A DNA stretch of 64,000 nucleotides. It comes from Hormoscilla sp. Its GTDB lineage: Bacteria > Cyanobacteriota > Cyanobacteriia > Cyanobacteriales > Desertifilaceae. Where the stretch lies: positions 1 to 64,000 of the forward strand of contig JBFRWI010000228.1 in the NCBI GenBank assembly GCA_051439505.1, read 5' to 3'. The position numbers were made by a program, and so were the translations under genes. Numbering within the stretch: the first letter of the stretch is position 1; every line of letters begins with the position of its first letter. The notes under the pieces were generated by a model that did not search any database, was not told the DNA's origin, and saw only the letters and a list, made by a program, of their open reading frames with translations. This document shows, in pieces, positions 7,023 to 46,427 of the stretch.

Positions 7023-7031
7023 CTCTGTTTT

Positions 7032-26449: not shown

Positions 26450-26870
26450 GTTAGACAAACGTCGCTCTAGATTAGACAAACGTCGCTCTAGGTTAGACAA
26501 ACGTCGCTCTAGATTAGACAAATGTATATTTTAATTATCCGAACGTATATCTATGTTATACAAATGTATATTTTAGTTATACAAACGTATATCTAGGTTA
26601 TACAAGCGTATATAATGGCCAAACAAACGTTGATAATGGCCAAGCAAACGTTGATAATGGTGATCGTAACGTCGATAATGGCCAAGCAAACGTTGATAAG
26701 AGTGATTGTAAGGTTGAGTTGGGCCAAAAACACATTAATTTGTGCCAAAAACACGTTGAGTTGGGCCAAAAATACATTGACTTGGGCCAAAAACCAGTAT
26801 ATTTTGTTGACCTTAACGTTTATTTGGGCCAAACCAACGTTAAAATAGGCAATATAAACGTTTGTAGGAG
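26450..26870. repeat. Diverging 21-bp tandem repeat array (~18-20 units)
   Basis: (G/A)TTAGACAAACGTCGCTCTAG x3 grading into ATGGCCAAGCAAACGTTGATA and TGGGCCAAAAACACGTTGAGT. Confidence 0.75.
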
Positions 26871-27008
26871 CTGCATTATGGGTGTGGGAAAACCCGTTAA
26901 TCGTTCATGGGCCCTCTCAGTCGGAGGAGGGTGTGGTCAAAAGTAGTTGATAGCTGGGTGCATCGCCCGAGGCATGTAATATAGCCATTAGCCATTTGCC
27001 ATTAGCCA

Positions 27009-27787
27009 TTAGCCATTAGCCATTTGCCATTTGATATTTTCTGAGAACGTCACAGATAATCTATCGTATAGCCAATCTTGGATTTCTTGAGCTAACCAAG
27101 CCGCTTCTATTTCCGTTAAACTCTTAGAATCCATGGTAATGGGATAATTAGTTTTCTCTGTTTTAATTTTGACGCTATAACAATCGCGACCGTTATTCTC
27201 CCTTATGCTATACAAGAAAACTCCCAAAATATTTGAGACAGCTTCTTCTTTCTTTAATTTTAAGTTCAAGCCCTCATATGCTATTTCAAACCTGTTCCGG
27301 TCAAAGTAAATGCGAATTCCTTCGCAGAATTTATACAAAATCAATCCCGAAATGCCAGTGGCTAAACAAATTGCTATTATTACGGTTAGCGGTGAATTCA
27401 TACTTAATATTACTACTTCAACAATTGTTATTAATCCGAAGATTGATAACCGGATAAAAAAGTTAGTTTTTGCAATATCCATTGCGCTAGGTATGAAAAT
27501 TTCCAATCGTTCTGCTTCTTTGTGCAATTGAATGCTGGTGCGATCGGGTTTAGGAATCTTTTTAGTTACAGGACCTTTTCGGGTCTCATGGGCAATAATT
27601 TGCCCTGTTTCCAGAGCAGACAGCGCTTGCTTGGCAGTGCTGAAGCGCTTTGATAAATCGAAGGCTGTCATGGTTTCAATCCAACTGACAAAGCTGGGGG
27701 AGAGACTGAGGCGATCGCTAAACTGAATTCTCGCATCTTTTATGGGTAAATCTACAGGATTCACTCCTGTCAACAAGTGAATTAATG
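27009..27787 (-). pseudogene. 3' half of a Ser/Thr protein kinase (from LIHLLTG onward, plus membrane-anchored tail)
   Basis: LIHLLTGVNP.DLP..D.RIQF.DR.SLSPSFVSWIE...KRFSTAKQAL; coding sequence begins at the MITE end at 27788. Confidence 0.8.
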
Positions 27788-27951
27788 GGGTGCATCTGGT
27801 GTTTTGCTTCTTGAGCAATTGAAAATTGAAAATTGAAAATTGAAAATTGAGCAAGATTTAATTGCTGATTGCTCCATTTTCAATTCGCCATAGCGCTCCT
27901 GCGTCGCGCACTGCGTATACGCAAATACAAATGCAAAAGTGAGATGCTCCC
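27788..27951. mobile_element. MITE family A copy (contains AATTGAA STRR); left boundary of the NRPS block
   Basis: GGGTGCATCT ... TGAGATGCTCCC; no TSD. Confidence 0.65.
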
Positions 27952-27997
27952 GTTTCATCGCTGGATGCTGTACCTCATCACTTCGAGAAATGCTATA

Positions 27998-28828
27998 TTA
28001 TAGCCTAGTCTCTACAATCAGATAAGCATTACGAAAATAGGGGAACTGGGTAAGGAATTTAAAAAGTAATCGCCATTGTCCAGGCCAACGTTCAGGATAT
28101 AGCTGATAAAGAGAATCAACGTTTACTATTCGCAATCCCATCGCTGTTAAGTCTGCTTCACTCTTGACGAACCACTTAAAAGGTGCTCCAATTTTATTCC
28201 CAATCTTTTTATATAACTTCCAGTAATTGCCAGTAACATCCATCACCCAAGTTGCACCGGGAAATCGAGAGCGCATTTGATTAACTAGTTGAGTTACTTG
28301 ATTCGCTTCAAGGTATGTTAGCAAACCTTCTGCAATAAATAGGATGTTTTCCGGTGCGACATCAGGCACAATATTCATCCAGTCGAAATCCATCACTGAA
28401 GCACTAATAAACTGGTGTTGCTGTGTTTCCGTGTCAAGCTGACGCCGCAAGTTTGTGACCTCAGGTAAATCCAGATCCAGCCAACACTCAACATTCTGTC
28501 CAATGCGGTGAAAGCGAGTAGACAACCCCGCACCCAATTCCACTACAACAGGATGAGGATGGTCAGCAATATGACCAGATGTTATTTGGTCATGATGATA
28601 AGCCCGCGTAGACCAACTAATTTGATATAAGGGATTATAGCGATTATACATTGCCTCTAGCTGTTCATCCCAAGGCAAAAGTTTTTGCCATTCTACAGCT
28701 AATGGATCTTGGAATAAAGGACAATGACAAGTTTGTTCATCTGCTCTTGTCTTCAGTGTCAAGAGCATAGTGCGGGGGACACCAGTTAGTTTTGTTGTAA
28801 TTTGAGACATAGAATTAAAATCTTTCAT
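27998..28828 (-). CDS. SAM-dependent methyltransferase, leucine-carboxyl-MT/TcmP-like O-methyltransferase
   Basis: VPRTMLLTL..RA, VVELGAGLSTRF, DLDLPEV, FIAEGLL.Y. Confidence 0.85.
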   Translation of the reverse strand: MKDFNSMSQITTKLTGVPRTMLLTLKTRADEQTCHCPLFQDPLAVEWQKLLPWDEQLEAMYNRYNPLYQISWSTRAYHHDQITSGHIADHPHPVVVELGAGLSTRFHRIGQNVECWLDLDLPEVTNLRRQLDTETQQHQFISASVMDFDWMNIVPDVAPENILFIAEGLLTYLEANQVTQLVNQMRSRFPGATWVMDVTGNYWKLYKKIGNKIGAPFKWFVKSEADLTAMGLRIVNVDSLYQLYPERWPGQWRLLFKFLTQFPYFRNAYLIVETRL

Positions 28829-28845
28829 TTCATGACAAGTAGGTA

Positions 28846-29181
28846 GGTACTGGTTCAGTCTAATTAAAAGGATCGCCTGAAACCCTCACCCAGTAAGGGA
28901 TATATAGCACTTCTCAATAAGGTGAGGTACAGTAGGGAGCAGGGAGCAGGGAGCAGGGAGCAGGGAGCAGGGAGAGGGAGTAGGGAGCACCCGTGAGCGT
29001 CTCTTAATCTTGCGCCGGGTAAATATTTTTTCACAGATTACTAGCTGCACGTGGAATGACCGGTTTTTAGATTGTACCTCATAATGGGAGAGAATTGCTA
29101 TAGCTGTTTGATGGCTAAATGCCCGAAACACCTACCCTGTAATAGTTTCAGCCGTTTGATTAATCAAACTGAACCAGTGCT
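28846..29181. mobile_element. Nested MITEs: outer TIR G(T/C)ACTGGTTCAGT; inner TA-flanked element at ~28903-29102 with AGGGAGC STRR
   Basis: GGTACTGGTTCAGTCTAATTAA / TTAATCAAACTGAACCAGTGC; inner TATAGCACTTCTC..GAGGTACA / TGTACCTC..GAGAATTGCTATA; another outer end at ~30235-30256. Confidence 0.65.
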
Positions 29182-29195
29182 TTACCGAGGGAGTT

Positions 29196-29441
29196 CTAAG
29201 AATTTGAAATCTCTTGTTTGGATTTTTTTAATTCAAAGAGTTCAAGAAGACTTTCTCGGAATGTGAAAATGAAATATATGAGCAGTAATGTTGCCAAGCC
29301 AATGAAGTTGTAACTTCTGAATAAGATGTATGCGCCCAGCAGAAGAAGAGCTAAAGCTACTACAGCTAATAAGCTAAGCAAAATCCTTTTGTTTCCCTCA
29401 AGTTCTGACAGTTGATCCAATGCCTGATAGATATTTTTCAT
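29196..29441 (-). CDS. Small two-TM hypothetical protein within the BGC
   Basis: 81 aa, ATG start, hydrophobic core, same strand as the cluster. Confidence 0.55.
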   Translation of the reverse strand: MKNIYQALDQLSELEGNKRILLSLLAVVALALLLLGAYILFRSYNFIGLATLLLIYFIFTFRESLLELFELKKSKQEISNS

Positions 29442-29500
29442 TTAATTTTTCTGAGTTTTGAGCGTGATTGCTTTCGTAAAGCCAATGAAGCCATTCAGCC

Positions 29501-30136
29501 TCAATATACCCAAGGAATTAAGCGAGATGTCTTTTCCTGAAACTTTTGATAGTTTTCACCAAAAGCCTCTGTAAGAACTTCCTCCTCAACCCGAATCCGA
29601 AAATCGTAAGCACAGAGGTTAAGCAGAAATTGTGCTAAGAATCCCAGTTGTGGTACCAGAAGAAAAGATCCCAGGTAAAGAAATTGACCGGAGAGATAGA
29701 GTGGGTGCCGTACCAAAGCATATGGACCAGTAGTTACGAGTTCATGACCCGGTTCAATGTGAGGGTACAGACGCCAAGTCCGAAACGCCCAAAATCCCCA
29801 AGTCTTGAGTACAAGTGAAATGATTAATATGACTATCCCACCCAACTGAAGGGGAAGAGAAAAAGGGAAGATAATTGGACCTGCTAGCTCAGGCTTAAAC
29901 CACCACAGTGTTAATAAAATGTTGTAGAGCGATTGAGTGATACCAGTCAGTAATTGTGTAACTTCAGCCCGGGATGAAGTTACGAGACGGGTCGCAACCG
30001 CATTCGTAGATCCTTCTTGCTTACTTCGGGTACCCTTTCTTCTGATAGTAGCAGCTTGGAAAATTAGTAGCCAATATAGGCTATGAGTAAGGGCAAGAAT
30101 AGCTTTAAGGTCAACATCTTGTAGTGTCATGTTCAA
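29501..30136 (-). CDS. Isoprenylcysteine carboxyl methyltransferase (ICMT/PEMT) family protein
   Basis: HELVTTGPYALVRHPLY, RIRVEEEVL..FG..Y..F, RLIPWVY. Confidence 0.88.
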   Translation of the reverse strand: MNMTLQDVDLKAILALTHSLYWLLIFQAATIRRKGTRSKQEGSTNAVATRLVTSSRAEVTQLLTGITQSLYNILLTLWWFKPELAGPIIFPFSLPLQLGGIVILIISLVLKTWGFWAFRTWRLYPHIEPGHELVTTGPYALVRHPLYLSGQFLYLGSFLLVPQLGFLAQFLLNLCAYDFRIRVEEEVLTEAFGENYQKFQEKTSRLIPWVY

Positions 30137-30544
30137 CTCCTAAAAGAACGTCAAGTACGAGCGGACAAATGTTTGAGGCGATTAGTTAAAAAATCGGTCA
30201 AACCTTTGACTGGCAAGGGTTCAGTCTGATTTTTTTAATCAGACTGAACCAGTGCCTCGCCCCTCTGGGGAGCATGAACGGGCGACTACGGGCTGTAAGT
30301 CCCTCATCCCATGGGTTTCAAATATAAGGCGCTCGTCTTATTCTGTGAGAACTTCGCACTCTCCAGTCAATAACTAACTCTACCAGTATAGAACATTCCT
30401 GCAGCTCCGCCTACGGGAGTGTTTTTTGTCCTACCTCTGTTCTCCTGGGCTTTTATATTCCTAATGGAATACGTCTAAAGAACTTCGCACTGTCCAGTAA
30501 AGGTGTCTCATCACTCATACCAGCAGATGTGGACCAAGACATGG

Positions 30545-33500
30545 CTAGGCATTGAGGTAGCCTGATAGTTTGTTAGCTAGACTCTGGACATGAGGCTTCC
30601 GGATGATTGCGTAATGATCGCTGGGGATCCGATGGACTTCGAGATCTTCAGGCAAGAGTTCACCCCAGATGAATTCAGGAGTGGGTTCCACATCGCCCTG
30701 GCTAGCACTAAAGAATACCAGTTGACCGGGATATGGATTGGGGATGTAGCTATATAAGGCCTGGTTATTAGCTTTAAAGACCTGCAATAGCTGATGCATC
30801 TGCTGCGGACTCACTTCTGGGGGTAAGACACCCAGTTGTTTCGCTTGTTTTAAGATGTGATTCAATTGTTCCCCTGGAGGTATCTGTCGCAGTTCATCAA
30901 CTGCTATTGATAAATCTTTTCCAACAATAGCGCCAAAATCTTGGGCGACATAGACCCAAAACGTCGCATCATCAATAGTTTCTGGCTTATTGATAGAGTT
31001 GGGGTATGGGCTATCTACCATAGCTAGTAACCCAATTTCTTCGCCTTTTTGGGATAACTGCTGAGCGATCTCAAACGCAATAATTCCTCCCAAAGACCAG
31101 CCGCCAAGTTGGTACGGACCTTCAGACTGAATGGTTCGTATGGCATCAAGGTAGTAAGTAGCCATCTCCTCAATGCGGGTAAACGGTTTACACTCTCCAT
31201 TGAGCCCGGCAGCTTGCAAACCGTAAAAGGGTTGTTCCTCACCCAGACAAAGGGCTAAATCGAGATAACACATCACATGGCCACCAATTGGGTGGACAAA
31301 GAAGAGGGGAGGCCGTTCACCAGAAGGCTGAATGGCTACTAAGGGAGATAAACCTTGAGAATCGGTGTGCTTCTGGAGAACACTAGCTAGGTGTTCAATC
31401 GTTGAGCCTTGTAAGAATGTCGCTAAAGGGAGATTTTTCCCAAAGTGTTGCTGAATTCGAGCCATCAAGCGCATGGCAGCAAAAGAGTGACCGCCAAGGT
31501 CAAAGAAGTTGTCTTGCATGTCAATCGGGTGGATACCCAAAATTTCTGACCAGATGAGTGATAGCTGGAGTTCTAAAGTGTTACGGGGCAGGATAAGGTT
31601 TGCTTCCTCAGAAGAATGGGATATCTCTGGTTTTGGCAGAGAGGGGCGGTCTACCTTGCCATTGGAGGTTAAGGGTAGAACCTCTAGCAGCATAATGATG
31701 GAAGGTACCATGTACTGGGGTAATTTCTCTGCCAGAAAATCCTGTAATTCATGGGGTGTGGGTTCAAACTCAGCGCTGGGAACAACGTAAGCTACCAGGC
31801 TCTTTTCCGCTTGTCGATCCCCCCCCACCGCCGTAACCACCGCCGCTTGCACAGCAGGATGAAGCAGTAGGGTCGTTTCAATTTCTCCACACTCGATGCG
31901 GTAACCTTGAACCTTAACTTGAAAATCTTTTCGGCCCAGAAACTCGATATTGCCATCAGGCAAATATCGACCCAAGTCACCCGTGCGGTACAATCGCTCA
32001 CCAGTCTTTGGATGGATGATAAAATTAGCGTGGGTCTTTTCTTCATTTTTCCAGTAGCCTTTGGCTAGTCCCACGCCTCCGATGTAGAGTTGCCCCGATA
32101 CCCAAGTGGGACAGAGTTCTAGTGTTTTATTGTACAGGTAGAACTGTTGATTGGTCATGGGCCGACCATAGGGAATACTCGTCCAGGTTTGCTCTACCCT
32201 GTCGATGGGATAGAGAATCGACCAGATCGAGACCTCAGTTGCTCCGCCAAGGCTGATGATCTGGACCCTGTCAATCAAAGTTTGAATTTGAGGGGGTAAG
32301 GTCAGCGGGATCCAATCTCCACTCAGCATTACCAATCGCAAGGAGGAGGGAGAAATCTGGGTGGAGGTTGCCTGTTCTACCAGTAGCTGCATCAAGGCCG
32401 GGACGGAGTTCCAAACCGTAACCTGGTGTTGTTGAATGAGATTCAACCAGTGCGAAGGTTCTTTGGTTCCTGAAGCATCGGGAAGAACAATTGTTCCGCC
32501 AGCGGCTAGGGTGCCAAAGATATCGTAAACTGACAGGTCAAAGCTAAGGGAAGAAAGAGCTAGCACCTTGTCTTTGGGTCCAACACCAAAGCGTTGGTTA
32601 ACGTCAACAATAGTATTGACTGCCCCGCGATGGTCAATCATCACTCCTTTCGGCAAACCAGTGGATCCGGAAGTATAGATGACATAAGCTAAATCTTCTG
32701 CTTGCTGCACGGATTCTGAGAATTGGATCTCCTCAGCATTGGCTTTTCTGGCAGTATCTACGTCAATTCTTTGCACATCCTCTGGCCACTCCAAAGCTTC
32801 CTCAAGCCAGGATTGGGTCAGTACCAGTTGCACTTCACTTTGCCTCAGTAGCTGCCAACGACGCTCTTGAGGAAGCGCGGGATCGATGGGAACATAAGCA
32901 GCACCCGCCATGAGAATAGCTAGAACTCCAACCACTTGCTCCCATCCCTTTTCCATCACCACAGCGACCAACTGGTTAGGACATGCTCCTAGCTGTCGCA
33001 GTTGACCGTTGAGCTGATGTGCTCGCAGATGCAGGTCTTGATAGGTCAGAGTCGCTGTTGATGAGACAACAGCGGGTTGCTCTGGTCGTTTTGATACCTG
33101 GGTGATAAACAAGGTGTGGAGTAACTTCTCCTCCCTCGGTGCATAGGTAGCATTGATGAAGGCTTGTTGCTTTAATTGGGCAAGGGGAACCAATTGGGGT
33201 GATATCTCTTGCCAGGTCTGTGCCGATGAAGCTAGCCGATGGAGAAAATGGAGATAGGAATCAAACATATCCTCTACTAACCCTGTCGGGAACAGCTCCT
33301 TCACAAAATCCCAGTTCACAACCACAGTCCCATCCATATCCTCAAAAACCTGATGATCCAGGAAGACTTGGGGGGTTAGGAGGCTGCCATAGACCCAATT
33401 CAACTCCAAAGAATTCGCTACCTGATCTTGGCTTCGAGGGGTGTCGTTGACCAGAAAACTAGAGAAGACAATTGGCATTGCTGCTCTAGAAGGATTACTC

Positions 33501-36500
33501 TGCGCTCGGTTGAGTTCTCGCATGACTTGAACACCACTGACAAGATTGTGTTCCAGGTCATCAGAGAGTTGTTGTTGAAGCCGCTTGGCTTTGACTTCAA
33601 AGGGGACCGCCATTGAGTTGTCAACCTCTAGCAATATGGTGGAGCTAAAGTTGCCTAGGATCTGGTTAACTTGAGGATGTAATGGCAGGCGATTGAAATA
33701 CAGGATGTTAATGGCAAAGTGAGAGCGCTGACCCCATACGGTTAACATCTCGGCATAAGCTGTGCAGAATAGAGTAGAGGGGGTTAGACCCGCTTGATTA
33801 GCTCTGGTTTTCAGCTGAAGCCATGTTTCTCTGTCCAATTTGCTACTCAAGCGAGCAAATCTATGCTGTGCTATTGTTTCAGGCTGTTTAGCTAGCGGCA
33901 ACTCTGGGGCAGGCGGTAGTGTAGGTATCCGGCTTTGCCAATAGTCAAGGTCTCGCTGGAATCGTGTTGAGTTTTGCCAAGTCTCCTTAGCTAAGACGTA
34001 ATCTCGGAATGAAAGCACTAGGGACGGCAGGGGCGCTTGGGGATTTTCGTAGAGTTTAAGCAATTCTCGGATTAGGATACGTGAGCTCCAGCCATCGAAC
34101 AGCAATAGATCCCGGCTGAAGTGAAGTCGAACTGCACGATCGGAGATCAGAGTTACCCGTAACTCAAACAATGGCCATTGGTTGGCCTGAAACTTTCGCT
34201 GGGACATCTGCTGACGAATACTTTCTATCTGCGCAGTGATAGCTTTCCACTCCTGTCCCCGCAAGTCCAGGAGCCGAATTTCGTAAAAATCGACCTGTTT
34301 AAGAACCTGCTGCTGACCGTCAGGCAACACCACGGTCCGCAGCGTGTCATGACGCTCAATTAATTTCTGCCAAACCCAGTTCAACCGTTCTAGGTTTAAA
34401 TCTGGGCTTTCAAACTCCATATAAGAAATACTTGCGACACTCAGCGCAAAGCCGCCCATTCGTCCAATCCAGTAGGCCTGCTGTATATCGTAGAGAGGAA
34501 AAGGTTGGTAGCGTTGCTCGGGTGCAGGAATAATTTCTGGTAGTAGAGTAATTGCATCAGCCTTGTCCCCTTCAGCCTCCTCCTGGATTGCCTCAATGGA
34601 CTTTGCTAAACTTGCTACAGTTGGTGACTCGAACAAGCAACGCACAGACAGTTCCACAGAAAGAGCGTCCCGCACCTGGGAGATGATTTGAGGAATAAGT
34701 AGGGAATGTCCCCCGAGTTCAAAGAGGCTATCGTGGATCCCAACTTGTTCTAACCCCAACACCTCAGCCCACAGAGCAGCCAATACCTGTTCCGTGGGGG
34801 TACTGGGCGGAACAAAGTTAGCGGACTGCCAGAGACTGAGCGTGTCGGGTGCAGGCAAGCTACGTCGGTCTACTTTACCGTTAGGCGTTAAGGGGATTTT
34901 TTCCAGAAACACCATGCCTGCTGGCATCATGTATTCAGGCAGCTTCTGCCGGAGGAAAAAGCGTAGGGTGTTGGGAGTTAATTGCTCCTGATTGGTGACT
35001 ATATAAGCAACGAGATTTTTGTCACCGGGGTGGGGGTAGTCGGTCTGAGCTAGGACTAGGGCCTTTTGCACGTCTGGATGGTGTTCTAACGCAGTCTCAA
35101 TCTCCCCAGGTTCAATGCGGACTCCTCGGATTTTGACCTGATGATCCAGACGGCCCAGAATTTCTAGAGAGCCATCCGAACGATAGCGTCCGCGATCGCC
35201 TGTCAGGTAGATCAAATCTTTCTCGTCGTTCCGAAAAGGATTCTTGACAAACCGCTGGTTCTCTTCTTCAGAAGCATTGATATACCCTAAACTTCTGAAG
35301 AAAGTCCGCACGGCAATTTCCCCCGGTTCGCCTACCCCACACAATCGACGATCGGAGCCTAACACCAGGGCTTGAGTGTCGGGTAGGGGAAAGCCGATCG
35401 GCTGTATTCCTGAAGAACTCTCGATCGGCACTCGGTAGTAGCACTTTGCCAGGGTTGTCTCTGTGGGGCCATAAAGATTAACAATGTTACCGCCTTCTGA
35501 GAACGCCTTGCGCCAGCGACGTACCAGGACTTCACTGAGGGGCTCTCCAGCAAAAAATACCCAGCGTAAAGAGCATAGAGAGAGATCGGGAGGCACATTG
35601 GCTAACCACGATTGGACCAGAGTAGGAACTGTGTGGAGCACCGAAATCCGTTGATGCTCCAACCAGGGTAAAATGCAAGTCGGTGAGAGAGTATCCTCCA
35701 GAGCTGGTAAACAAAGGGTGGCCCCACTGGTCAAAGGGAGGAAGATATCTCTGAGAACGACATCAAAAGAGAGTCCTGTCAGTTGGGCACAACGATCGTG
35801 GGGTCCAATGGCAAAGGTCTTTTGCTGCCAGTTGAGAAAGTGAGATAGCCCTTTGTGACACCCTAATACCCCCTTAGGAACACCTGTGGTCCCGGAAGTA
35901 AAGAATATGTAAGCAGCATCATTAGGGGAAATCAGGGGGAGGGAGTGAGGAAGAGGGAACGGGGAGAGCATTCCCCTCCCTTGGCCAGTGTCTGGGTCGA
36001 TGAGAATGATTTCGAGATCCTCCCATAGACCTTCATGCTCTGGCAGCTGCCCACCAATGTACAATAAGCGTTGAGCTTTGGCTTCCGAGAGCATGAGTTG
36101 CTGCCGCTGGGGGGGTAGGTTTGGATCGAGTGTCAGGAGAACACCACCACAACTGAGCACACCTAGCATACTGACAATCAACCCGAAGCTGCGTAGACCT
36201 GATATGGCAACAACCTCTCCCGGTTTAACTCCAAGAGTAACGAGAGTCTGGGCTAGGGTCTGAGCACTTTGGGCGAGTTCGCTATATGTCCAGGATTGCT
36301 CTCCTTGACACAGGGCTGTTTGGTGGGGAGTACCCTTGGCCCAAGTCCTGAATAACGTGGGAACTGGTTCATAGTAGGGTTCCTGTAGAGGCGCACTGGG
36401 GTCAGGCAGGAATCCTTGGGAAACTGATGTTACTAGAGAGTAGTCCTGGATAGGGCGATCTGGGGTGGCAATAATTTGCTCCAGCAGATATTGAAATTGC

Positions 36501-37867
36501 TGCAAAAAACAGGCCATAAATTCCGCTGAAAATAGAGCCTGCTGATACACCAACTCCAAACTTAATTGCCCTGAGTCTTCTCTCACATAGAGGGTTATGG
36601 CAAATTTTGACTGAGGATCCGTTTGCTCAAGGAGGAGAGTAAGGGTGAGTCCTGATAGCTCAATATCCTTCTTGGGAGTATTGACGAAATTGAGCATGAC
36701 ATCGAAGATCGGGTTCCGGCTCAAATCTCGTTCTGGCTGTAGGACTTCAACTAGTTTTTCAAAAGGCAAGTCTTGATGAGCATAGGCTTCTAAGGTTATT
36801 TCCCGAACCCGACTGAGCAATTCCCGAAAACTGGGGTTGCCGGAAAGATTTGTTCGGATTGCCAGGGAATTCAGGAATAACCCAATCAGTTCTTCGGTTT
36901 CTCTCTGATGGCGACCAGCGATAGGGGTTCCGACGATGATGTCTTCTTGTCCGCAATAGCGAGACAGCAATATCTGAAAGGCTGCCAGGAGGGTCATGAA
37001 CGGGGTAGCTTCTTCCTCCCTGCTCAGGCGTTTCATAGCCTCCGTTAGAGGCTGAGGCAGCACCAGGAGTAGCCTCGCTCCCTGGAAAGTTTGTTCGGCT
37101 GGTCGAGGGTAAGTGGTGAGAAGTTCCAGGACAGGAGCACTAGCTAGTTGCTGCTTCCAGTAAGTCAGCTGCACGTTCAGAATTTCTCCCTGCAACCACT
37201 GTCGTTGCCAATGGACGAAGTCTGCATACTGAATGGACAGCTCAGGTAACGGTGAAGGCTGACCGGTAGAGAAGGCTTCGTAAAGCGCCCCGAGTTCCTT
37301 GACGAGCACTTTCATAGACCAACCATCGCTGATGATATGGTGCATTGTTAGCAGCAGCACATGCTCCCCTTCGGTCAGTTGTAGCAGGGTAACTCGCAGT
37401 AAGGCTCCATGGGTCAAGTCGAAGGGTTTTTCGGCTTCCTCAGTCGCCAACCGTTGAATTTCCTTAGACTGCTCAATTTCTAGCAACTGCCGCAAGTCCA
37501 CCACTGGTAGCGTCAAAGTGAGGCTGGGAGCAATGATCTGGAAGGGTTGGCCATTGACAGTTGCAAAGGTGGTTCGCAAGGTTTCATGGCGCCTCACGAT
37601 CTCATTGAAACTCTGTTCCAGCGCGACCAGGTTGAGGAGACCTCTCAGATGAACTGCTACAGGGATGTTGTAAGAGGGATTGCCAGACTCCAACCGATCT
37701 AGAAACCACAATCTTTGCTGAGCAAAGGAGAGAGGAAAAGAGTTAAACTCACTCCCTTCTTCCTCAAGTAACTTCTCAAGAAGCTCTCTTTTTTCTGGAG
37801 AGAGCATAGCAATCCGTTCAGAATAATCATTCATCGTTGTCAAGTTCCTAAGTTCCTCAATTGGCAT
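30545..37867 (-). CDS. NRPS: C-A-PCP-Cy-A(Cys)-PCP-TE
   Basis: HHIISDGWS; GGHSLL; Cy motifs PFPLYDIQQAYWIGR and DLLLFDGWS; Cys-type code DLYNMSLIWK; GWSLG thioesterase; alternative start 37834. Confidence 0.93.
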   Translation of the reverse strand: MPIEELRNLTTMNDYSERIAMLSPEKRELLEKLLEEEGSEFNSFPLSFAQQRLWFLDRLESGNPSYNIPVAVHLRGLLNLVALEQSFNEIVRRHETLRTTFATVNGQPFQIIAPSLTLTLPVVDLRQLLEIEQSKEIQRLATEEAEKPFDLTHGALLRVTLLQLTEGEHVLLLTMHHIISDGWSMKVLVKELGALYEAFSTGQPSPLPELSIQYADFVHWQRQWLQGEILNVQLTYWKQQLASAPVLELLTTYPRPAEQTFQGARLLLVLPQPLTEAMKRLSREEEATPFMTLLAAFQILLSRYCGQEDIIVGTPIAGRHQRETEELIGLFLNSLAIRTNLSGNPSFRELLSRVREITLEAYAHQDLPFEKLVEVLQPERDLSRNPIFDVMLNFVNTPKKDIELSGLTLTLLLEQTDPQSKFAITLYVREDSGQLSLELVYQQALFSAEFMACFLQQFQYLLEQIIATPDRPIQDYSLVTSVSQGFLPDPSAPLQEPYYEPVPTLFRTWAKGTPHQTALCQGEQSWTYSELAQSAQTLAQTLVTLGVKPGEVVAISGLRSFGLIVSMLGVLSCGGVLLTLDPNLPPQRQQLMLSEAKAQRLLYIGGQLPEHEGLWEDLEIILIDPDTGQGRGMLSPFPLPHSLPLISPNDAAYIFFTSGTTGVPKGVLGCHKGLSHFLNWQQKTFAIGPHDRCAQLTGLSFDVVLRDIFLPLTSGATLCLPALEDTLSPTCILPWLEHQRISVLHTVPTLVQSWLANVPPDLSLCSLRWVFFAGEPLSEVLVRRWRKAFSEGGNIVNLYGPTETTLAKCYYRVPIESSSGIQPIGFPLPDTQALVLGSDRRLCGVGEPGEIAVRTFFRSLGYINASEEENQRFVKNPFRNDEKDLIYLTGDRGRYRSDGSLEILGRLDHQVKIRGVRIEPGEIETALEHHPDVQKALVLAQTDYPHPGDKNLVAYIVTNQEQLTPNTLRFFLRQKLPEYMMPAGMVFLEKIPLTPNGKVDRRSLPAPDTLSLWQSANFVPPSTPTEQVLAALWAEVLGLEQVGIHDSLFELGGHSLLIPQIISQVRDALSVELSVRCLFESPTVASLAKSIEAIQEEAEGDKADAITLLPEIIPAPEQRYQPFPLYDIQQAYWIGRMGGFALSVASISYMEFESPDLNLERLNWVWQKLIERHDTLRTVVLPDGQQQVLKQVDFYEIRLLDLRGQEWKAITAQIESIRQQMSQRKFQANQWPLFELRVTLISDRAVRLHFSRDLLLFDGWSSRILIRELLKLYENPQAPLPSLVLSFRDYVLAKETWQNSTRFQRDLDYWQSRIPTLPPAPELPLAKQPETIAQHRFARLSSKLDRETWLQLKTRANQAGLTPSTLFCTAYAEMLTVWGQRSHFAINILYFNRLPLHPQVNQILGNFSSTILLEVDNSMAVPFEVKAKRLQQQLSDDLEHNLVSGVQVMRELNRAQSNPSRAAMPIVFSSFLVNDTPRSQDQVANSLELNWVYGSLLTPQVFLDHQVFEDMDGTVVVNWDFVKELFPTGLVEDMFDSYLHFLHRLASSAQTWQEISPQLVPLAQLKQQAFINATYAPREEKLLHTLFITQVSKRPEQPAVVSSTATLTYQDLHLRAHQLNGQLRQLGACPNQLVAVVMEKGWEQVVGVLAILMAGAAYVPIDPALPQERRWQLLRQSEVQLVLTQSWLEEALEWPEDVQRIDVDTARKANAEEIQFSESVQQAEDLAYVIYTSGSTGLPKGVMIDHRGAVNTIVDVNQRFGVGPKDKVLALSSLSFDLSVYDIFGTLAAGGTIVLPDASGTKEPSHWLNLIQQHQVTVWNSVPALMQLLVEQATSTQISPSSLRLVMLSGDWIPLTLPPQIQTLIDRVQIISLGGATEVSIWSILYPIDRVEQTWTSIPYGRPMTNQQFYLYNKTLELCPTWVSGQLYIGGVGLAKGYWKNEEKTHANFIIHPKTGERLYRTGDLGRYLPDGNIEFLGRKDFQVKVQGYRIECGEIETTLLLHPAVQAAVVTAVGGDRQAEKSLVAYVVPSAEFEPTPHELQDFLAEKLPQYMVPSIIMLLEVLPLTSNGKVDRPSLPKPEISHSSEEANLILPRNTLELQLSLIWSEILGIHPIDMQDNFFDLGGHSFAAMRLMARIQQHFGKNLPLATFLQGSTIEHLASVLQKHTDSQGLSPLVAIQPSGERPPLFFVHPIGGHVMCYLDLALCLGEEQPFYGLQAAGLNGECKPFTRIEEMATYYLDAIRTIQSEGPYQLGGWSLGGIIAFEIAQQLSQKGEEIGLLAMVDSPYPNSINKPETIDDATFWVYVAQDFGAIVGKDLSIAVDELRQIPPGEQLNHILKQAKQLGVLPPEVSPQQMHQLLQVFKANNQALYSYIPNPYPGQLVFFSASQGDVEPTPEFIWGELLPEDLEVHRIPSDHYAIIRKPHVQSLANKLSGYLNA

Positions 37868-37881
37868 ATCTATCTATGACT

Positions 37882-37978
37882 GGCTACCAACTTAATACGG
37901 GACAAATCCGCCTCAGTGATTGGCATCTGTGGGCTGGAAGCCTTGCAAAGTGGGCTATCCCGGCTTAAGTTTGCAGCC
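37882..37978. mobile_element. MITE family B (TIR GGCT(A/G)C(C/A)AACTTAA) between the NRPS genes
   Basis: GGCTACCAACTTAA ... TTAAGTTTGCAGCC; flanks CTATGACT / CTATGACC; inverted truncated copy at 43389-43451. Confidence 0.75.
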
Positions 37979-37989
37979 CTATGACCCTG

Positions 37990-40900
37990 CTATTCACTCT
38001 TTTCTCCACGCAGGATATTTTTGGCCTCGTTGTCTGAAAGTTGTTCCAGCTTTGCTAAGAGTTGATCGAAATTTTTAGTTCCTCGGGATACAGCTTGAAT
38101 CTTTGTCATATTTCCACCTTTCTGTATAGCTTGACTTTTTTCAATTACCAAAGCCTGGGCAGCTACTGTAGGGGCTTCAAATATCTCCCGCAAGGGTAGC
38201 TCCACCTGAAAGGCTTCGCGCACCCGAGAGAGCACTTGGGTGACTAGTAGAGAGTATCCTCCCAGCTTGAAGAAGTTGTCGTGAATGCCCACCCTCTCTA
38301 TACCCAGGACTTCAGCCCAGATTCGGGCTATCTCCTCCTCGACCGGAGTACGAGGTGCTACAAATATCCCTTCGAGCTCGGACTGACTTGCTCGATCGGG
38401 GACAGGCAGAGCTCGGCGGTCTATCTTCCCGTTGGGGGTCAGTGGCATTACCTCCAGACTTACAAAAGCAGTGGGTACCATGTAGTCCGGAAGCTTTTTC
38501 TTGAGGAAGGGGCGTAGTTCACTGGGAGGGAGACCTCGTGAAGGGTTCGATGGAACGACGTAGGCGACAATGCGCTTGTCGTCTGCTCGGTCTTCCCGGA
38601 CAATCACAATGGCATCCCTCACCTCGGGGTGCTGACCCAATAAAGCTTCAACTTCTCCGAGTTCGATACGAAAACCACGAATCTTCACCTGATGATCGAT
38701 CCGGCCCAGAAACTCAATGTTGCCATCTGGAAGATAGCGGGCGAGATCGCCAGTTTTATACAGGCGTGCTCCAGGTTTGTCAATAAAGGGATTAGAGATA
38801 AATTTTTCCTGAGTCAATTCTGGGCGGTTCAGATAGCCCCGTGCCAGACCAGCGCCACCAATGTGCAGTTCGCCTATAACGCCAATGGGGACGGGTTGGA
38901 GATAGTCATCCAAAATGTAGATTTGTGTGTTGGTAATTGGGCGGCCAATAGTTGGGTGCCTACGGTATCCTTTCTCTACTAGGGCAAACGTGGAGTAGGT
39001 GGTGTCTTCAGAAGGTCCGTAAAGATTGAAAACCTGCCCGATCGTATCCTTCTGATAAAGCTGCTGTACTAGCCGATTTTGAAGTGGTTCACCGGCCAAG
39101 TTTACCGTACACGCCGAGGTAGGTATACCATTAATTCTCAATAACTCAGCGATTGCGGAGGGAACAGTATTGATCAGGGTGACATACTGAGCTGCCGATA
39201 AGGTAATCAGGTGCAACGTATTCTCGGCGAGAATAGTCTTTCCGCCCCAACTCAGAGGGACAAACAGCTCAAAGACCGAGAGGTCAAAACAAATAGAGGT
39301 TGAAGCCAAAACACCAGCCAGTTGTTCGGTAGTAAAGACCCCTCGGGCCCAATGACACAGGGCAACTGTACTTTGATGTTGGATCGCCACTCCTTTAGGC
39401 TTGCCTGTGGAGCCAGAGGTGTAGAGAGTGTAGGCCAAGTTTGTTGGCTCAACGTCACTGACAGGATTCCCTTCAGGTTTCCAAGCGATCGCCTCCCAGT
39501 CTGCATCTAAACAGACTACCTTTGCCCAATGCTCAGGCAACTCGGACACCAACTTCTGTTGGGTCAACAGCACTGGCACCTGGGAATCAGACAGCATGAA
39601 GGCTAAGCGCTCTTTTGGATAAGCTGGGTCCAATGGTACATACGCCCCACCCGCCTTGAGAATGCCAAGCAACCCCACCACCATCTCTAGGGAGCGTTCC
39701 ATGCAAATGCCCACTAACACTTCCGGTCCGACCCCTAGGATTTGCAGATGGTGTGCCAGTTGATTGGCTCTGGCGTTCAGCTCCCGGTAGGTCCACTGCT
39801 GGTTTTCAAAGACGACTGCAACGGCTTCTGGAATCCGCTCCACCTGAGCTTCAAACAGTTGATGAATACATCGATTTTGCGGATAGGCAACTGGAGGGTT
39901 GTTCCACTCAACCAACAACTGGTGGCGCTCAGGAGAGGTCAGCAGGGGTAACGTTGAAACTTGCTGCTGGGGATTGACGACAATTGCATCTAGTAACGTC
40001 TGAAAATGCCCTACCATCCGGTGAATGGTGGCTGCCTCAAACAGCTCCGTGTTATACACAAACGACGCCGCTATCCCGCCATCCCTCTCAGCCGTCCTTA
40101 GGGTCAGGTCGAACTGAGCGACTCGCTGCTCTAGAGCCCAAGACTCTAATTCCAGTTCCCCCAGATTTAGCCGCGCTCCCGATTCCCCTAATGCCAACTG
40201 GGTCAGGCCCTGTTCATCGAGCAAATGGGCCTTGTGCAAGATGAACATGACTTGGAATAACGGTGAGCGACTCAGATCCCGAACTGGCTGTAGTCCCTCG
40301 ACCAAGAGGGCAAAGGGGTAGTCCTGATGCTTAAAGGCTTCCAGCACGGAGGAACGTACCCGATCCAAAAACACCTCAAAGCTCGGATTTCCTGATAGAT
40401 CTGCTCGCAGAATTACTGGATTGACGAAGTAGCCCACTAACCCAGCTAACTCGGCCCGATTTCTGCCTGCTGTAGGGGATCCAACCAGAATATCTTCTTG
40501 ACCTGTGTAGCGGTGGAGCAGTACCTGAAAGGCAGCTAGCAGGGTCATGTAAAGGGTTGCTCTATGGTCACGACCTAGAGCTTTAAGCTTCTGGGTCAAC
40601 TCCATGCTGAGCTTGAAAGGCACAGAAGCCCCTCGATAGGTTTGGACTGGTGGTCGAGGTCGGTCTGTGGGGAGATTCAGCACGGGTAACTCCCCTGCCA
40701 ACTGCTTGTGCCAGTAAGCCCATAGCCGTTCTCCTTCTGGACTTGCCAACCTCTTTGATTGCCAGTAGGCATAATCCGTGTATTGGAGTGCTAATGGCTC
40801 CAGAGCAGGGGTTCCCCCCGTCTTTTCTGCCTGATATAAAATGCTCAGCTCCTTCACCAACACGGCTAGAGACCAGAAGTCAACCACGATGTGGTGCATT

Positions 40901-43353
40901 ATTAGCAGGAGGATATGCCCTTGGTCACCTTGAGTAAACAAGCGCACCCGCAGTAAGGGACCTCGTTCTAAAGCAAATGGACAGTGGGACTCTTCAACTA
41001 GACGCTCGTTCAGAAAGGCTTCGCTCCAGTTCGAGGCATTCTCCTCCTGGAAGCAGAACGATCCTTGCTCGTGAACCTGGGCTACAGGTCCCTCCTGAGA
41101 AGCTGTGAACGTTGTCCTGAGGGCAGGATGGCGAGACACTAGGGCCTGGAATGCTTTTTGCAAAGCTGGGATGTCCAGCTCAGAGCAAATGCGTACAGCA
41201 CTTGCAATGTTGTAGGCTGTACTCTCTGGTGTCATCTGGTGCAAGAACCACAGCGATCGCTGACCATAGGATAGGAAGTGCTCCGTGCCAGTGGCTTGAA
41301 CTGGGACTAGCGGGATCTCTGAAGCAGCTATAGGCGCACTCAACAGATTGAGGATTTCAGTTGCTAGCTGACTGATACTGGGCCCCTCGAGAAGGTCTGC
41401 CATCGGCAAAACGACACCCAAACTCGTTTCAATGTCATTTTTCAGCTCGATCACCATCAAGGAATCAAGACCCAAGGTACTCAAGGTCGTCTGCAAGTCC
41501 AACTGGGAGGGGGCGACTTTCAGCACCCGAGCTACCAGTTCCCGGAGATAAGACTGCAGCCGCTGCGGTCGGTTTTCGGAATCTATCGCCAGGAGAACTT
41601 CGTAAGTCAGGCTCTGCTCGATGTCTCCGGAATAGAAGTTTTCCAGAATGTTGCTCCCTACCACATCCAAGCTACCATTCAGAAAGCTAGTCCAGCAGGT
41701 TTGGCGCTGGATTTTGCCGCTGGAGGTTTTTGGTATACTCCCAGTCTTGAGCAGCAAGACTGCATAAACTTGCAGATCCTGTTCCTCCGACACCGCCTTG
41801 CGGATAGCTCCCACCACTGCTTCTACATTGATCTGCCGTAGAGAATTCCGTTTCACCTCTTGCGCAACAACCAGGCGCTCCTCGCCCGCCACTTCTACCC
41901 CGAACGCTGCTCCACAACTAGGGCGCAGGGCTGGATGACTCCGCTCCACGGTCAGTTCAATATCCTGGGGATAATGGTTGCGACCCCAGATGATAATCAG
42001 GTCCTTGAGTCGCCCTGTAATAAACAACTCACCATCCTGCATAAATCCCAGGTCGCCAGTACGCAAAAAAGGACCTTCACCAGTATCTAGATAAGCATTG
42101 AAGGTCTTCGCTGTTGCCTCCGGTTGATTCCAATAGCCCTGAGCTACACTCAGGCTGGATATCCAAATCTCTCCAACCTGGTCAGCCCGACAGCGGGTGT
42201 TAGATTCAGGGTCAACGAGTGCAATTTTTTCAAACAATGACTGACCACAGCCCACAATTACCCGAGCATTGGCTGGATCTGCGGTAGCTACCACGCAGTT
42301 TTGCTCAAGATCGGCGGCCTCGACCTGGAGAAGAACGGGGAGAGCCGTTTTCACCCCTCCGGAAACGAATAAAGTTGCTTCGGCCATCCCGTAACAGGGG
42401 TAAAAGGCTTCTCTTCGGAAACCACAATCGGCAAAATAGTGAGAAAACCGCTCTAGTGTCTCAGCATGAACGGGTTCGGATCCGTTGAAGGCTACTGACC
42501 AGCTGCTCAAGTCAATGTCAGCACGCTGTTGGGGACTAATCTTCTGGACGCACAGATCGTAAGCAAAATTCGGACCGCCGCTGGTGGTCGCCTTGTAGCG
42601 GGAAATAGCTTGCAGCCAGCGCAAAGGCTTTTGGAGAAAGGCTGCTGGTGACATAAGAACGGACGGTATGCCCATATACAGGGGCTGCAATACATTCCCA
42701 ATCAGTCCCATATCGTGGAACAAAGGTAACCAACCAACTACCAGAGTATCTGTTGTGTGACCAAAACCAATCTCGATCAGCCGTTCATTGTGTAGCAAAT
42801 TGCCATGACTGACCATCACCCCTTTCGGCGCTCCGGTAGACCCCGAAGTATACTGGAGAAAAGCCAAGGTGCTGCTGCACAAGGCTGGTTCTTGCCAGTC
42901 CAATCTCTGGTCGCTTTGCAGTTGATCGGTGGCTAGCCAGTGCAAAGAAGCCAATTCGGGATCTTGGGCGAATTGATTCCCCAGCCTAGCCAACTCCGAG
43001 GCTGTGGTGAGTGCCAACGTCGCCTGGGAATCTGCCACAATTGCCTGCACCCTAGACATTTTCTGATTGCGCCGAGGTGGATAAGCAGGAACAGCTACTA
43101 TTCCTGCATACAAACAGCCGAAGAAGGCAGTAATGAACTCCAGACCCGGTGGATAAAGCAGCAACGCTCGGGAGCCAATGGCGCTAAAACTTTGAAGCTG
43201 GGCTGCGATCTCACGTGAGCGTTGGTTTAATTCTTGATAGGTTAAACTAACTTTCTCAGTTTCTCCATTTTGTAGAAAGATATAAATTACTTGATCTGGC
43301 TTATTTTGCGCTTGGTACTGTAAGAGATCTATAAAAGTCAAAATTTTCTGCAT
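37990..43353 (-). CDS. NRPS loading protein: FAAL-ACP-C-A(Ala)-PCP
   Basis: FAAL motifs (LQYTSGSTG, WLPLFHDMGLIG, GRNHYPQDIE); GLDSL; HHIVVDFWS; A-domain code DLFNNALTYK (Ala-type); GGYSLL; likely ATG at 43353. Confidence 0.93.
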   Translation of the reverse strand: MQKILTFIDLLQYQAQNKPDQVIYIFLQNGETEKVSLTYQELNQRSREIAAQLQSFSAIGSRALLLYPPGLEFITAFFGCLYAGIVAVPAYPPRRNQKMSRVQAIVADSQATLALTTASELARLGNQFAQDPELASLHWLATDQLQSDQRLDWQEPALCSSTLAFLQYTSGSTGAPKGVMVSHGNLLHNERLIEIGFGHTTDTLVVGWLPLFHDMGLIGNVLQPLYMGIPSVLMSPAAFLQKPLRWLQAISRYKATTSGGPNFAYDLCVQKISPQQRADIDLSSWSVAFNGSEPVHAETLERFSHYFADCGFRREAFYPCYGMAEATLFVSGGVKTALPVLLQVEAADLEQNCVVATADPANARVIVGCGQSLFEKIALVDPESNTRCRADQVGEIWISSLSVAQGYWNQPEATAKTFNAYLDTGEGPFLRTGDLGFMQDGELFITGRLKDLIIIWGRNHYPQDIELTVERSHPALRPSCGAAFGVEVAGEERLVVAQEVKRNSLRQINVEAVVGAIRKAVSEEQDLQVYAVLLLKTGSIPKTSSGKIQRQTCWTSFLNGSLDVVGSNILENFYSGDIEQSLTYEVLLAIDSENRPQRLQSYLRELVARVLKVAPSQLDLQTTLSTLGLDSLMVIELKNDIETSLGVVLPMADLLEGPSISQLATEILNLLSAPIAASEIPLVPVQATGTEHFLSYGQRSLWFLHQMTPESTAYNIASAVRICSELDIPALQKAFQALVSRHPALRTTFTASQEGPVAQVHEQGSFCFQEENASNWSEAFLNERLVEESHCPFALERGPLLRVRLFTQGDQGHILLLIMHHIVVDFWSLAVLVKELSILYQAEKTGGTPALEPLALQYTDYAYWQSKRLASPEGERLWAYWHKQLAGELPVLNLPTDRPRPPVQTYRGASVPFKLSMELTQKLKALGRDHRATLYMTLLAAFQVLLHRYTGQEDILVGSPTAGRNRAELAGLVGYFVNPVILRADLSGNPSFEVFLDRVRSSVLEAFKHQDYPFALLVEGLQPVRDLSRSPLFQVMFILHKAHLLDEQGLTQLALGESGARLNLGELELESWALEQRVAQFDLTLRTAERDGGIAASFVYNTELFEAATIHRMVGHFQTLLDAIVVNPQQQVSTLPLLTSPERHQLLVEWNNPPVAYPQNRCIHQLFEAQVERIPEAVAVVFENQQWTYRELNARANQLAHHLQILGVGPEVLVGICMERSLEMVVGLLGILKAGGAYVPLDPAYPKERLAFMLSDSQVPVLLTQQKLVSELPEHWAKVVCLDADWEAIAWKPEGNPVSDVEPTNLAYTLYTSGSTGKPKGVAIQHQSTVALCHWARGVFTTEQLAGVLASTSICFDLSVFELFVPLSWGGKTILAENTLHLITLSAAQYVTLINTVPSAIAELLRINGIPTSACTVNLAGEPLQNRLVQQLYQKDTIGQVFNLYGPSEDTTYSTFALVEKGYRRHPTIGRPITNTQIYILDDYLQPVPIGVIGELHIGGAGLARGYLNRPELTQEKFISNPFIDKPGARLYKTGDLARYLPDGNIEFLGRIDHQVKIRGFRIELGEVEALLGQHPEVRDAIVIVREDRADDKRIVAYVVPSNPSRGLPPSELRPFLKKKLPDYMVPTAFVSLEVMPLTPNGKIDRRALPVPDRASQSELEGIFVAPRTPVEEEIARIWAEVLGIERVGIHDNFFKLGGYSLLVTQVLSRVREAFQVELPLREIFEAPTVAAQALVIEKSQAIQKGGNMTKIQAVSRGTKNFDQLLAKLEQLSDNEAKNILRGEKSE

Positions 43354-43451
43354 GAGTTCCAGAGAATAATCTAAACAGCTCAAAATATGGCTACCAACTT
43401 AAGCCGGGACAGCCCATGATGCAAGGCTGGAAGCCCACAGGTATTTCAGTC

Positions 43452-43573
43452 GGGTGCATCTCACTTTGGCACGGGGGAAGCATTCGGGGCTAAAATTTGT
43501 CGTTTTCTGTCATCATTTTTTCAGCCCGAATGCTTCCCCCCTACAGATGGATCGGCAAAACTGAGATGCACCC
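43452..43573. mobile_element. MITE family A copy; right boundary of the NRPS block, truncating the kinase 5' half
   Basis: Perfect 12-bp TIR GGGTGCATCTCA / TGAGATGCACCC; near-identical to 2909-3029; no TSD. Confidence 0.85.
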
Positions 43574-43847
43574 AGCGCCTACCCTGTTCTAGTAATTCCT
43601 GAAGGGATGGGCCTGGGATGTAGTCTTGCACCAGTGCAAACCAGGGGACGCCTTCACCCGTTTGTCGATCTATGGAAAAGTAATCCCGATAATGGGGAAT
43701 TTGGGGATTAAAGGCCAGTAGCTTGACTATTACCTGTTCTTGCGATATTATATCTGTTGCGAGCCAAGTTTGACGACTGGCGGCGGTGCGTCCTAATTTC
43801 TGTTGGAGTTGGTATCTCTCAAGTAAGATATGTTGTGCTTGCAGCAT
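43574..43847 (-). pseudogene. 5' half of a Ser/Thr protein kinase, also with an internal deletion
   Basis: ERYQLQQKLGR..RQTWLA..VIVKLLAF..IPHYRDYF..LVQDYIPG.SLQELL; lacks the usual ..LFEREA..L.HP segment; stops at the MITE. Confidence 0.8.
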
Positions 43848-44120
43848 CCGGTTACCTGCCGATGGAATCCGCTCCTATTATAGCACCCAGCCATCGGGAA
43901 GCACAAGAAAAACTGCATGTGTGGCAGTAATGGTGCTGGGGAGGCACCACACATATTTTGTTTCATGTGAGGGGATGGAGTGTCTGTAATCACATTAGGC
44001 ACGGGCCAAGTCCTCAAGTAATTCCGCTTCAGTTAGGCGAAAGGTATCGACAGCGTAGTCCGCCTTTTGATGGCAAACAGGCTTTGTGTTTACTACGAAC
44101 CTTAGCGATCGCCTCCGAAA

Positions 44121-44609
44121 CTAATCACAAGCAACTCGTGCCAAGAAATCAGCAAACACCAGCAATTCACTTTGAGTTTGCGTAAAAGATTGTCGCAGTC
44201 GTCCGATCAGCGGTTCAATTCGTTGGAGTTCAAACTCGAAAGCATAAACATTGCGCACCACATGGCGAAAACGCCGATACTCGTCTAAGAAGCTAATCGT
44301 TTCTGTTGAGAGTACCTGTGGACGTAAATCAGACCAAGCTATACCCATCTGATTCAATAAATCTCGATGCCATTCACGACCTGCGGGCATACTCCCATCC
44401 ACAACAGTAGCAATTTGCGAGAATATTCTCTCTAGACCTGTGTAGAAATCATGCAAACTTAATGCCACCGAATCTATGAATAGGTCTTTATTTTCAGAAC
44501 TTGACTTTGTTGCAGCAGTCATGGCGCGTTCCGCACGGTTAACAATTATTTCTAAATCTGCTAACTCTTGACGAATGCGCCCTGTTAATACTTGATATGG
44601 TTTTGTCAC
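44121..44609 (-). CDS. HEPN/HepT-like (DUF86-related) RNase toxin
   Basis: SLHDFYTGLERIF, WHRDLL, YRRFRHVVRNVY; overlaps the MNT gene by 4 bp. Confidence 0.8.
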   Translation of the reverse strand: MTKPYQVLTGRIRQELADLEIIVNRAERAMTAATKSSSENKDLFIDSVALSLHDFYTGLERIFSQIATVVDGSMPAGREWHRDLLNQMGIAWSDLRPQVLSTETISFLDEYRRFRHVVRNVYAFEFELQRIEPLIGRLRQSFTQTQSELLVFADFLARVACD

Positions 44610-44980: not shown

Positions 44981-45181
44981 AACATTTTTGACAATTATCC
45001 TCCTCCCTATTTTACCCGATCGCCCCTAAATTGCGTTCCCGTTTTATCTATTATACCTCAATCTTGGACAAAAAGTCAGCTAAGTACATAGGCTTGCATC
45101 CGGATTAATATTTTTTCAGATGCGCACCCTCCCAGGGAGCCCCGATTTTTTGGTATTACATTAAGAGAGAGAAGCACTATA

Positions 45182-46390: not shown

Positions 46391-46427
46391 TTGTCAAACA
46401 ATTTCGACCAGGTCCGGCGACTAATGA

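Follow-up and report, generated by a model that had tools for sequence, protein, structure and literature searches.

A nonribosomal peptide synthetase operon bounded by ISKra4-type miniature elements between the two halves of a kinase pseudogene in a Hormoscilla genome

The region described here is a window of 64,000 bp that opens contig C228, which is 126,637 bp long and free of N, in a draft assembly of the cyanobacterium Hormoscilla sp. (6.47 Mb in 232 contigs, 93% complete). Within it lies a minus-strand nonribosomal peptide synthetase (NRPS) operon with two methyltransferase genes, flanked on each side by a MITE (miniature inverted-repeat transposable element) and, directly outside these, by the two parts of a broken Ser/Thr kinase gene (Table 1). 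The junctions, and the case as a whole, are known from this one draft assembly; comparisons within the genus draw on four congeners (G001, G002, G003 and G004).

Table 1. Features of the split-kinase locus, in window coordinates. P0122, P0001 and P0002 are intact 450-aa kinases; L252 is a locus of G004.
Feature	Position	Strand	Remarks
Ser/Thr kinase pseudogene, 5' part (codons 1-115)	43574..43847	-	69-bp in-frame internal deletion; 85/91 identical to P0122, 82/91 to P0001 and P0002
Right MITE, 122 bp, ISKra4-type ends	43452..43573	.	no target duplication of its own
Cargo, one gene set (15,500 bp; MITE-to-MITE block 15.8 kb)	27952-43451	-
~103-bp palindromic repeat, second copy, first 63 bp	43389..43451	.	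cut at inner end of right MITE; 98% over 65 bp to complete G004 (L252) copy
NRPS 1, 1787 aa, FAAL-ACP-C-A-T	37990..43353	-	uninterrupted frame, motifs present; Pfam/NCBIfam
~103-bp palindromic repeat, full copy	37882..37984	.	lies between NRPS 1 and NRPS 2; 76-82% to copies in each of the four congeners
NRPS 2, 2440 aa, C-A-T-Cy-A-T-TE	30545..37867	-	uninterrupted frame, catalytic motifs present; Pfam
ICMT/PEMT-family membrane methyltransferase, 211 aa	29501..30136	-	PF04191, PF04140
LCM-family S-adenosylmethionine-dependent methyltransferase, 276 aa	27998..28828	-	PF04072
Left MITE, 164 bp, ISKra4-type ends	27788..27951	.	interior with TTGAAAA heptamer run; no target duplication of its own
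Ser/Thr kinase pseudogene, 3' part (codons 208-450; end of kinase C-lobe, membrane-spanning tail)	27009..27787	-	220/242 identical to P0122, 214/242 to P0001

The two kinase parts preserve both strand and order, as a preliminary description of the window had stated with the right coordinates, and at neither joint does a spare base separate the kinase from the MITE end. The 5' part, aligned to P0122, takes in residues 1-114 and a single base, the first, of codon 115; it reads ...QELLEQGRR where it meets AGATGCACCC (43564-43573) of the right MITE. The 3' part takes up again at 27787 beside GGGTGCATCT (27788) of the left MITE, with the second base of codon 208, and reads (T)LIHLLTG. The 279 bp missing between them, a size taken from the protein alignment to P0122 and presuming an orthologue without an indel there, include the HRDIK, DFG and APLE motifs, so that the reported absence of the catalytic middle holds. 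Beyond this main deletion, 23 codons (residues 48-70) have been lost in frame within the 5' half, and the frame of the 3' half extends 16 codons past the orthologue's end. Neither the kinase middle nor any other orthologous copy was found in the assembly, in which the next best kinases are at most 53% identical.

P0122 is the closest relative of both halves (93% identical to the 5' half, 91% to the 3' half) and the third member of a cluster with P0001 and P0002, which reach 88% and 71% in a protein search with the 3' half. Identities of the 3' half fall from 220/242 (P0122) through 214/242 (P0001) and 173/242 (P0002) to about 43% for the next seven proteins, and in the variable tail it matches these three relatives at 71-91% identity and the rest at about 43%; for the 5' half, the best of the remaining 118 of 121 proteins reaches 80%. 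Since the same three relatives head the list for both parts, the halves are, to judge from these alignments, one gene. Two different truncated paralogues flanking the operon by chance, which the preliminary description had raised as a threat to its own reading, are scarcely credible: the family does form tandem paralogues in other genomes and on contig C33 of this assembly, but the shared best-match orthologue excludes halves from different paralogues, the tail is close to those three relatives alone, and the gene is single-copy at the loci checked in G005 and G007.

The comparison with sister genomes that the preliminary description had proposed, in the expectation of an intact kinase at an empty site, gave no intact orthologue in the four congeners (best match at most 47%), and none of G001, G003 and G004 has a kinase at the corresponding site. 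In G002, however, the counterpart of the gene at window 25193-26050 has upstream of it a kinase remnant, in matching orientation and 91% identical over 56 bp; the remnant extends about 20 codons beyond the window's joint and then gives way to insertion sequence (IS) debris, with no NRPS. Because G002 keeps a kinase remnant at this site without the operon, the kinase is the resident and the operon the insert. Metagenome scans returned no relative with the 3' half, and with P0122 only relatives of at most 64% identity.

The kinase remnant of G002 shares its intergenic site (L041:7500-10100), the same as in the window, with a DUF433-like remnant and with nested IS fragments, a case of independent decay at a likely insertion hotspot. 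Directly upstream of the kinase the window carries a HepT/MNT-type toxin-antitoxin pair (44121-44980), which is located elsewhere in the congeners. The stretch from about 17.6 to 45.2 kb is out of order relative to G002 (where the orthologue of 15760-14043 comes after the EAL gene, whose window copy ends at 45180) and relative to G004; from gene order, a larger rearrangement appears to surround the split kinase.

Both MITEs are short and non-coding, with 10-bp core inverted ends, and they are alike at these ends only (80 identical of 164 aligned columns). The preliminary description was thus right to place a MITE at each boundary but not to assign both to a single family A, as they represent different subfamilies. 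The right MITE is 91% identical to the element at window 2909-3029, which has an 8-bp duplication, and 89-90% identical to two G002 copies with duplications of 8 and 9 bp; the closest full copy of the left MITE, a 170-bp element at L245 in G004 (76% over its whole length), has a 9-bp duplication. As such copies show, both types move as units with 8-9 bp duplications. The end word GGG(T/A)GCATC(T/C) occurs 270 times in the assembly against 58 expected, a few occurrences being copies of the NsiR1 RNA. The assembly holds 24 two-ended elements of 80-400 bp; the 8-9 bp duplication is exact in 13 of them and has a single mismatch in another four. The MITEs of this locus are two of the seven elements without one, and since 5 of the 22 others also lack it, loss of the duplication is not rare in this family.

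With about 212 ends above expectation in 6.47 Mb, the chance that both joints fall within 1 nt of an end is about 1e-8, and we are therefore highly confident that MITE ends made both joints, the small remaining doubt falling to assembly error or paralogy. Short reads mis-joined through repeated MITEs would be a natural concern in a draft of 232 contigs that is the sole source and in which both joints are repeats. We nevertheless consider this very unlikely: the nearest assembled copies are just 91% (right) and 65% (left) identical, the locus sits mid-contig without an N, the kinase middle is nowhere in the assembly, both halves are decayed, and an error would presuppose one and the same pair of MITEs, matching in order, both in the kinase and on the two sides of the operon. 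Between 86 and 95% of sampled words from 42000-47000 are present in three read runs of one study, possibly of the source sample; such words say nothing on the joints.

The outer flanks of the block differ at 6 of 8 positions, so that there is no target duplication around it, as had been reported, and all four MITE flanks differ from one another. When the flanks of all 270 ends were cross-matched, no partner emerged for any flank of this locus; one distant pair lay in heptamer repeats and was set aside as chance. Over the whole assembly 34 of the 270 ends have a duplication partner. Several matches to AGATGCACCC at 7072-7927 were considered as MITE ends and rejected, being NsiR1 small-RNA copies. 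They belong to a tandem array of six such copies at window 7025-7970 (RF02399; the gathering score is exceeded by four of them). In front of each copy stands a TCCGGA motif that we take to be the DIF1 promoter element. NsiR1, which is reportedly heterocyst-specific (PMC9045159), has 11 matches in three arrays in this assembly, two matches in G002 and four in G005.

The MITE ends point to the ISKra4 family of insertion sequences. Its transposase model, NF033572, has 90, 82, 11 and 121 matches in the four congeners and a single one in the Hormoscilla assembly; three transposases match the model, one of them above its cut-off. Twenty ISKra4 loci of the genus were examined, and ten of them yielded an element that combines inverted ends with an 8-9 bp duplication. 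Nine of these ten carry the MITEs' ends, and the tenth, the single ISKra4-family gene of the Hormoscilla assembly (L062), has different ends. Compared with these IS ends, the left inner end of the pair of MITEs agrees at 19/20 positions, the right outer at 18/20, the right inner at 17/20 and the left outer at 12/20. The first 15 nt of the right outer end are identical to those of the element L077, and elements with the left-outer end type carry duplications in the assembly. In two of six elements examined, a short open reading frame overlaps a long one in the -1 frame, an arrangement that the portion of PMC3942029 used here describes for the ISMich2 group; the same portion gives 8-9 bp repeats for these transposase families and proposes circular intermediates. 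By their terminal sequences, the MITEs appear to be ISKra4-family derivatives.

Just downstream of the kinase, at window 26931-26964, a GGGTGTGGTCAAAA-type end (the end type of L062) is fused to a GGGTGCATC end, and similar nested ends occur at this site in G001, G003 and G004. Nested ends of this kind may account for many of the unpaired ends.

The cargo is an intact FAAL-initiated three-module NRPS operon, its domains comprising FAAL-ACP loading, complete C/Cy-A-T modules and a release domain in open frames. The first start codon, that of NRPS 1, lies 98 bp from the right MITE, and the stop codon of the LCM-family gene lies 46 bp from the left MITE. The binding pockets of the three modules read DLFNNALTY, DVRHFALLA and DLYNMSLIW; we take the first to specify Ala and the third Cys, and leave the second without assignment. 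Since the third module has a DxxxxDxxS cyclization motif and aligns to bacillamide BmdB, and since no oxidase domain is found among the Pfam domains of the cargo, we predict a thiazoline. The operon would thus make a tripeptide that is N-acylated, has a cysteine-derived thiazoline at its end and is methylated by one or both methyltransferases. Cyanobacterial FAAL-initiated lipopeptide systems with a Cy-A(Cys) module (BmdB for module 3; fischerazole, fsh, in the part of PMC13548996 drawn on here) resemble it in FAAL-ACP loading, heterocyclization, TE release and a stand-alone methyltransferase. They differ in that no polyketide synthase, halogenase or oxidase domain is seen in the cargo, whose modules reach 52-68% identity at best. 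As the kinase start is on the operon's strand and upstream of it, read-through is possible from the kinase promoter, below which the operon would have been dropped and which may now drive it; a promoter scan of 43300-44150 gave two sites against 1.1 expected, which is no evidence.

A hydrophobic open frame of 81 codons (29196-29441, minus strand), recognized from its translation, lies between the two methyltransferase genes. The ICMT-family gene is surrounded by a 30-nt inverted repeat pair (28845-28874 and 30228-30257, 87%), of which two further copies occur elsewhere in the assembly. Its GC content is 0.43, below that of the NRPS genes, and it may be a later addition.

The operon was not found in the four congeners (best DNA matches about 70%), nor was the ICMT-family gene when used as query, and a separate ICMT scan came back empty. 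A search of 300 genomes of the order, in which no more than 1-2 candidates were scored for each, gave 10 genomes with DNA matches of E <=1e-150, each to one part of the operon only and at 68-76%. The gene set is not repeated in the five best-match neighbourhoods examined (G352, G378, G204, G105, G234). The best named relatives of the LCM-family methyltransferase are in Symploca sp. (83%), Okeania (73%) and Moorena (71%), and a VatO-like methyltransferase is a 65% relative of it. The NRPS genes, at GC 0.50-0.52, are close to their neighbours and give no signal of foreign composition. Because of this composition and the genus-typical repeats in the cargo, we infer that the last donor was likely the same lineage or a near relative, not a distant genus. 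A 13-base match was tried as a donor scar and rejected; it lies within a coding region, with 0.19 such matches expected.

The preliminary description held that the cluster had been delivered or rearranged by MITE ends with an adjacent deletion. The joints and the deletion stand. Our preferred account, which we hold with evenly divided confidence, is that an ISKra4-family transposase acting in trans on the outer MITE ends inserted the operon, and that an adjacent deletion removed the kinase middle together with the target duplication. At the donor site, two different non-autonomous elements with GGG(T/A)GCATC(T/C) ends would have flanked the operon, the right one cutting a resident palindromic repeat (relative to the complete L252 copy, the last ~40 bp are missing). 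The transposase of a full ISKra4-type element would have treated the outer ends as those of one 15.8-kb unit, and a circular intermediate is probable, as in related Mutator-like elements. A deletion starting from one outer end would then have taken away 279 bp of kinase and the duplication, after which the dead kinase would have decayed further and the operon frames would have stayed open. Two elements flanking a cargo placed in a foreign target, here the kinase, are what marks composite transposons and integron mobilization units (IMUs).

Several observations weigh against this account. An outer target duplication, the hallmark of composite transposons, is lacking (6/8 mismatches, with 279 bp missing), and a second, unseen event is needed to explain this. 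The left outer end is the weakest match to the sampled IS ends (12/20). No transposase with the MITEs' ends was found in the assembly itself, which is 93% complete in 232 contigs (drafts often drop repeats, and absence does not follow); the autonomous IS anticipated by the preliminary description exists, as the ISKra4 family, in the four congeners. Neither a second copy nor a relative of the MITE-bounded block turned up in the order-level search (1-2 candidates scored per genome) or in a species-level scan, and neither a donor scar nor the missing part of the cut repeat was found in the assembly. Of the assembly's 41 pairs of ends that face each other at distances of 1-60 kb, this pair alone splits a recognisable gene (in a comparison whose protein set favoured the locus), and there is accordingly no sign that such events are common; by eye, no long duplication-bounded pair was seen among the first 100 of 184 listed G002 ends. 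The joints, finally, are read from the draft assembly.

A last point against the outer ends, that the inner flanks are only two edits apart (p ~0.008, or 0.8%, per comparison; 3% over four), is a weak hint of inverse transposition through the inner ends. Both MITEs would then have landed in the kinase, at codons 115 and 208, and their inner ends would have been used to insert into circular or looped operon DNA, with the 279 bp between them discarded. Such a course explains the deletion directly, with no extra step; the inner ends match IS ends well (19/20 and 17/20), and the three bases beyond the left inner flank are the next three of the cut repeat, as read from its closest full copy. It is nonetheless unlikely in our estimate: the inner flanks, when aligned, disagree at 4 of 8 positions, need an indel to be brought together and were found alike post hoc; two MITE landings 279 bp apart are required; and the remaining ~37 bp of the cut repeat are absent after the left MITE, which demands either that more DNA was deleted or that the circle was closed no farther than 3 bp from the target.

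Yet another course would be stepwise, with separate MITE-end events (one-ended joints, adjacent deletions, block moves) bringing a long-resident operon between the halves and trimming the flanks. The differences among all four flanks, the small share of ends with a duplication partner (34/270), the altered gene order relative to G002 and G004, and a cargo with genus-typical repeats and near-neighbour GC (0.50-0.52 in the NRPS genes) would all fit. We regard it as quite improbable even so, because strand and order are kept, which one insertion explains and inversions would need several steps to restore; moreover, the operon is not found in the congeners and the assembly holds no donor scar.

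Insertion by the outer ends has precedents among elements without a transposase of their own. Paired MITEs can move cargo with the transposase supplied in trans, as reported for the IMU in the part of PMC3184786 drawn on here. The IMU of Enterobacter cloacae pCHE-A, MITE-flanked class 1 integrons of Acinetobacter and IR148/mcr-5 (portions of PMC3184786 and PMC10969869) share with the present locus two non-autonomous MITEs with no transposase inside, and ends resembling those of a full element that would act in trans. The IMU has two identical 288-bp copies with ISSod9 ends, a 5-bp duplication and shown mobility (same portion of PMC3184786). At the present locus, in contrast, MITEs with differing interiors and ISKra4-type ends enclose a 15.5-kb NRPS operon as cargo, no duplication is present and mobility is deduced. 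The ISSod9 ends of the IMU are Tn3-like. Classical composite transposons of the Tn10/Tn5 type also have a gene block enclosed by two elements, with outside as well as inside ends, and are known to be prone to adjacent rearrangements (PMC1676026, in the part drawn on); the Hormoscilla locus differs in having no flanking transposase gene, non-identical flanking elements and no outer duplication. Because the outer duplication and near-identical flanks (80/164 columns) are wanting, the locus is not a composite transposon proper, though it would be IMU-like in its working.

The window elements share their end sequence and 8-9 bp duplications with the ISKra4 family (p-MULT 4: ISAzba1, ISMich2 and ISKra4 groups; NF033572), as characterized in the consulted portion of PMC3942029, but they encode no transposase and have only some 10-20 terminal bases in common with it; that portion describes passenger genes within single elements, not MITE pairs around a cluster. 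Small mobile ends bordering a cyanobacterial NRPS, with an adjoining deletion, are also seen where microcystin clusters have been lost or inactivated, through ISPlag1 remnants in Planktothrix (PMC2464740) and MITE insertions in Anabaena mcy (PMC3184786), both from parts of these papers. In those cases the cluster is destroyed, whereas here it is apparently intact and itself inserted. A literature search, mostly of titles and abstract openings, found no MITE-bounded biosynthetic cluster and no ISKra4-derived MITEs with cargo.

Further features of the window include two DndB-domain proteins and a gene for DNA phosphorothioation-associated protein 4 (83-2342 and 53165-55444), degenerate 21-bp tandem arrays between genes (26424-26857 and 55492-55701), with related copies elsewhere in the assembly, and, side by side, two perfect palindromes (49455-49555) whose arms measure 23 and 22 bp and whose loops measure 5 nt.

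Biosynthetic clusters are patchily distributed among cyanobacteria, and their mobility is usually deduced from nearby transposase genes, which are absent here. At this locus the split gene fixes an insertion with base precision and links it to a transposase family that can be named, and MITEs likely moved a whole natural-product pathway, an orphan lipopeptide pathway; MITE-flanked cargo is already known for integrons and resistance genes, and we found no natural-product case. We would suggest, tentatively, that ISKra4-type MITEs act in this genus as a cargo system, in which any two scattered ends, even across subfamilies, can be paired in trans to move a natural-product operon. A screen for clusters bordered by short IS ends instead of mobility genes suggests itself. 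If the suggestion is true, this cargo system would offer cyanobacterial NRPS clusters a way to spread patchily without a transposase or integrase gene left as a trace.

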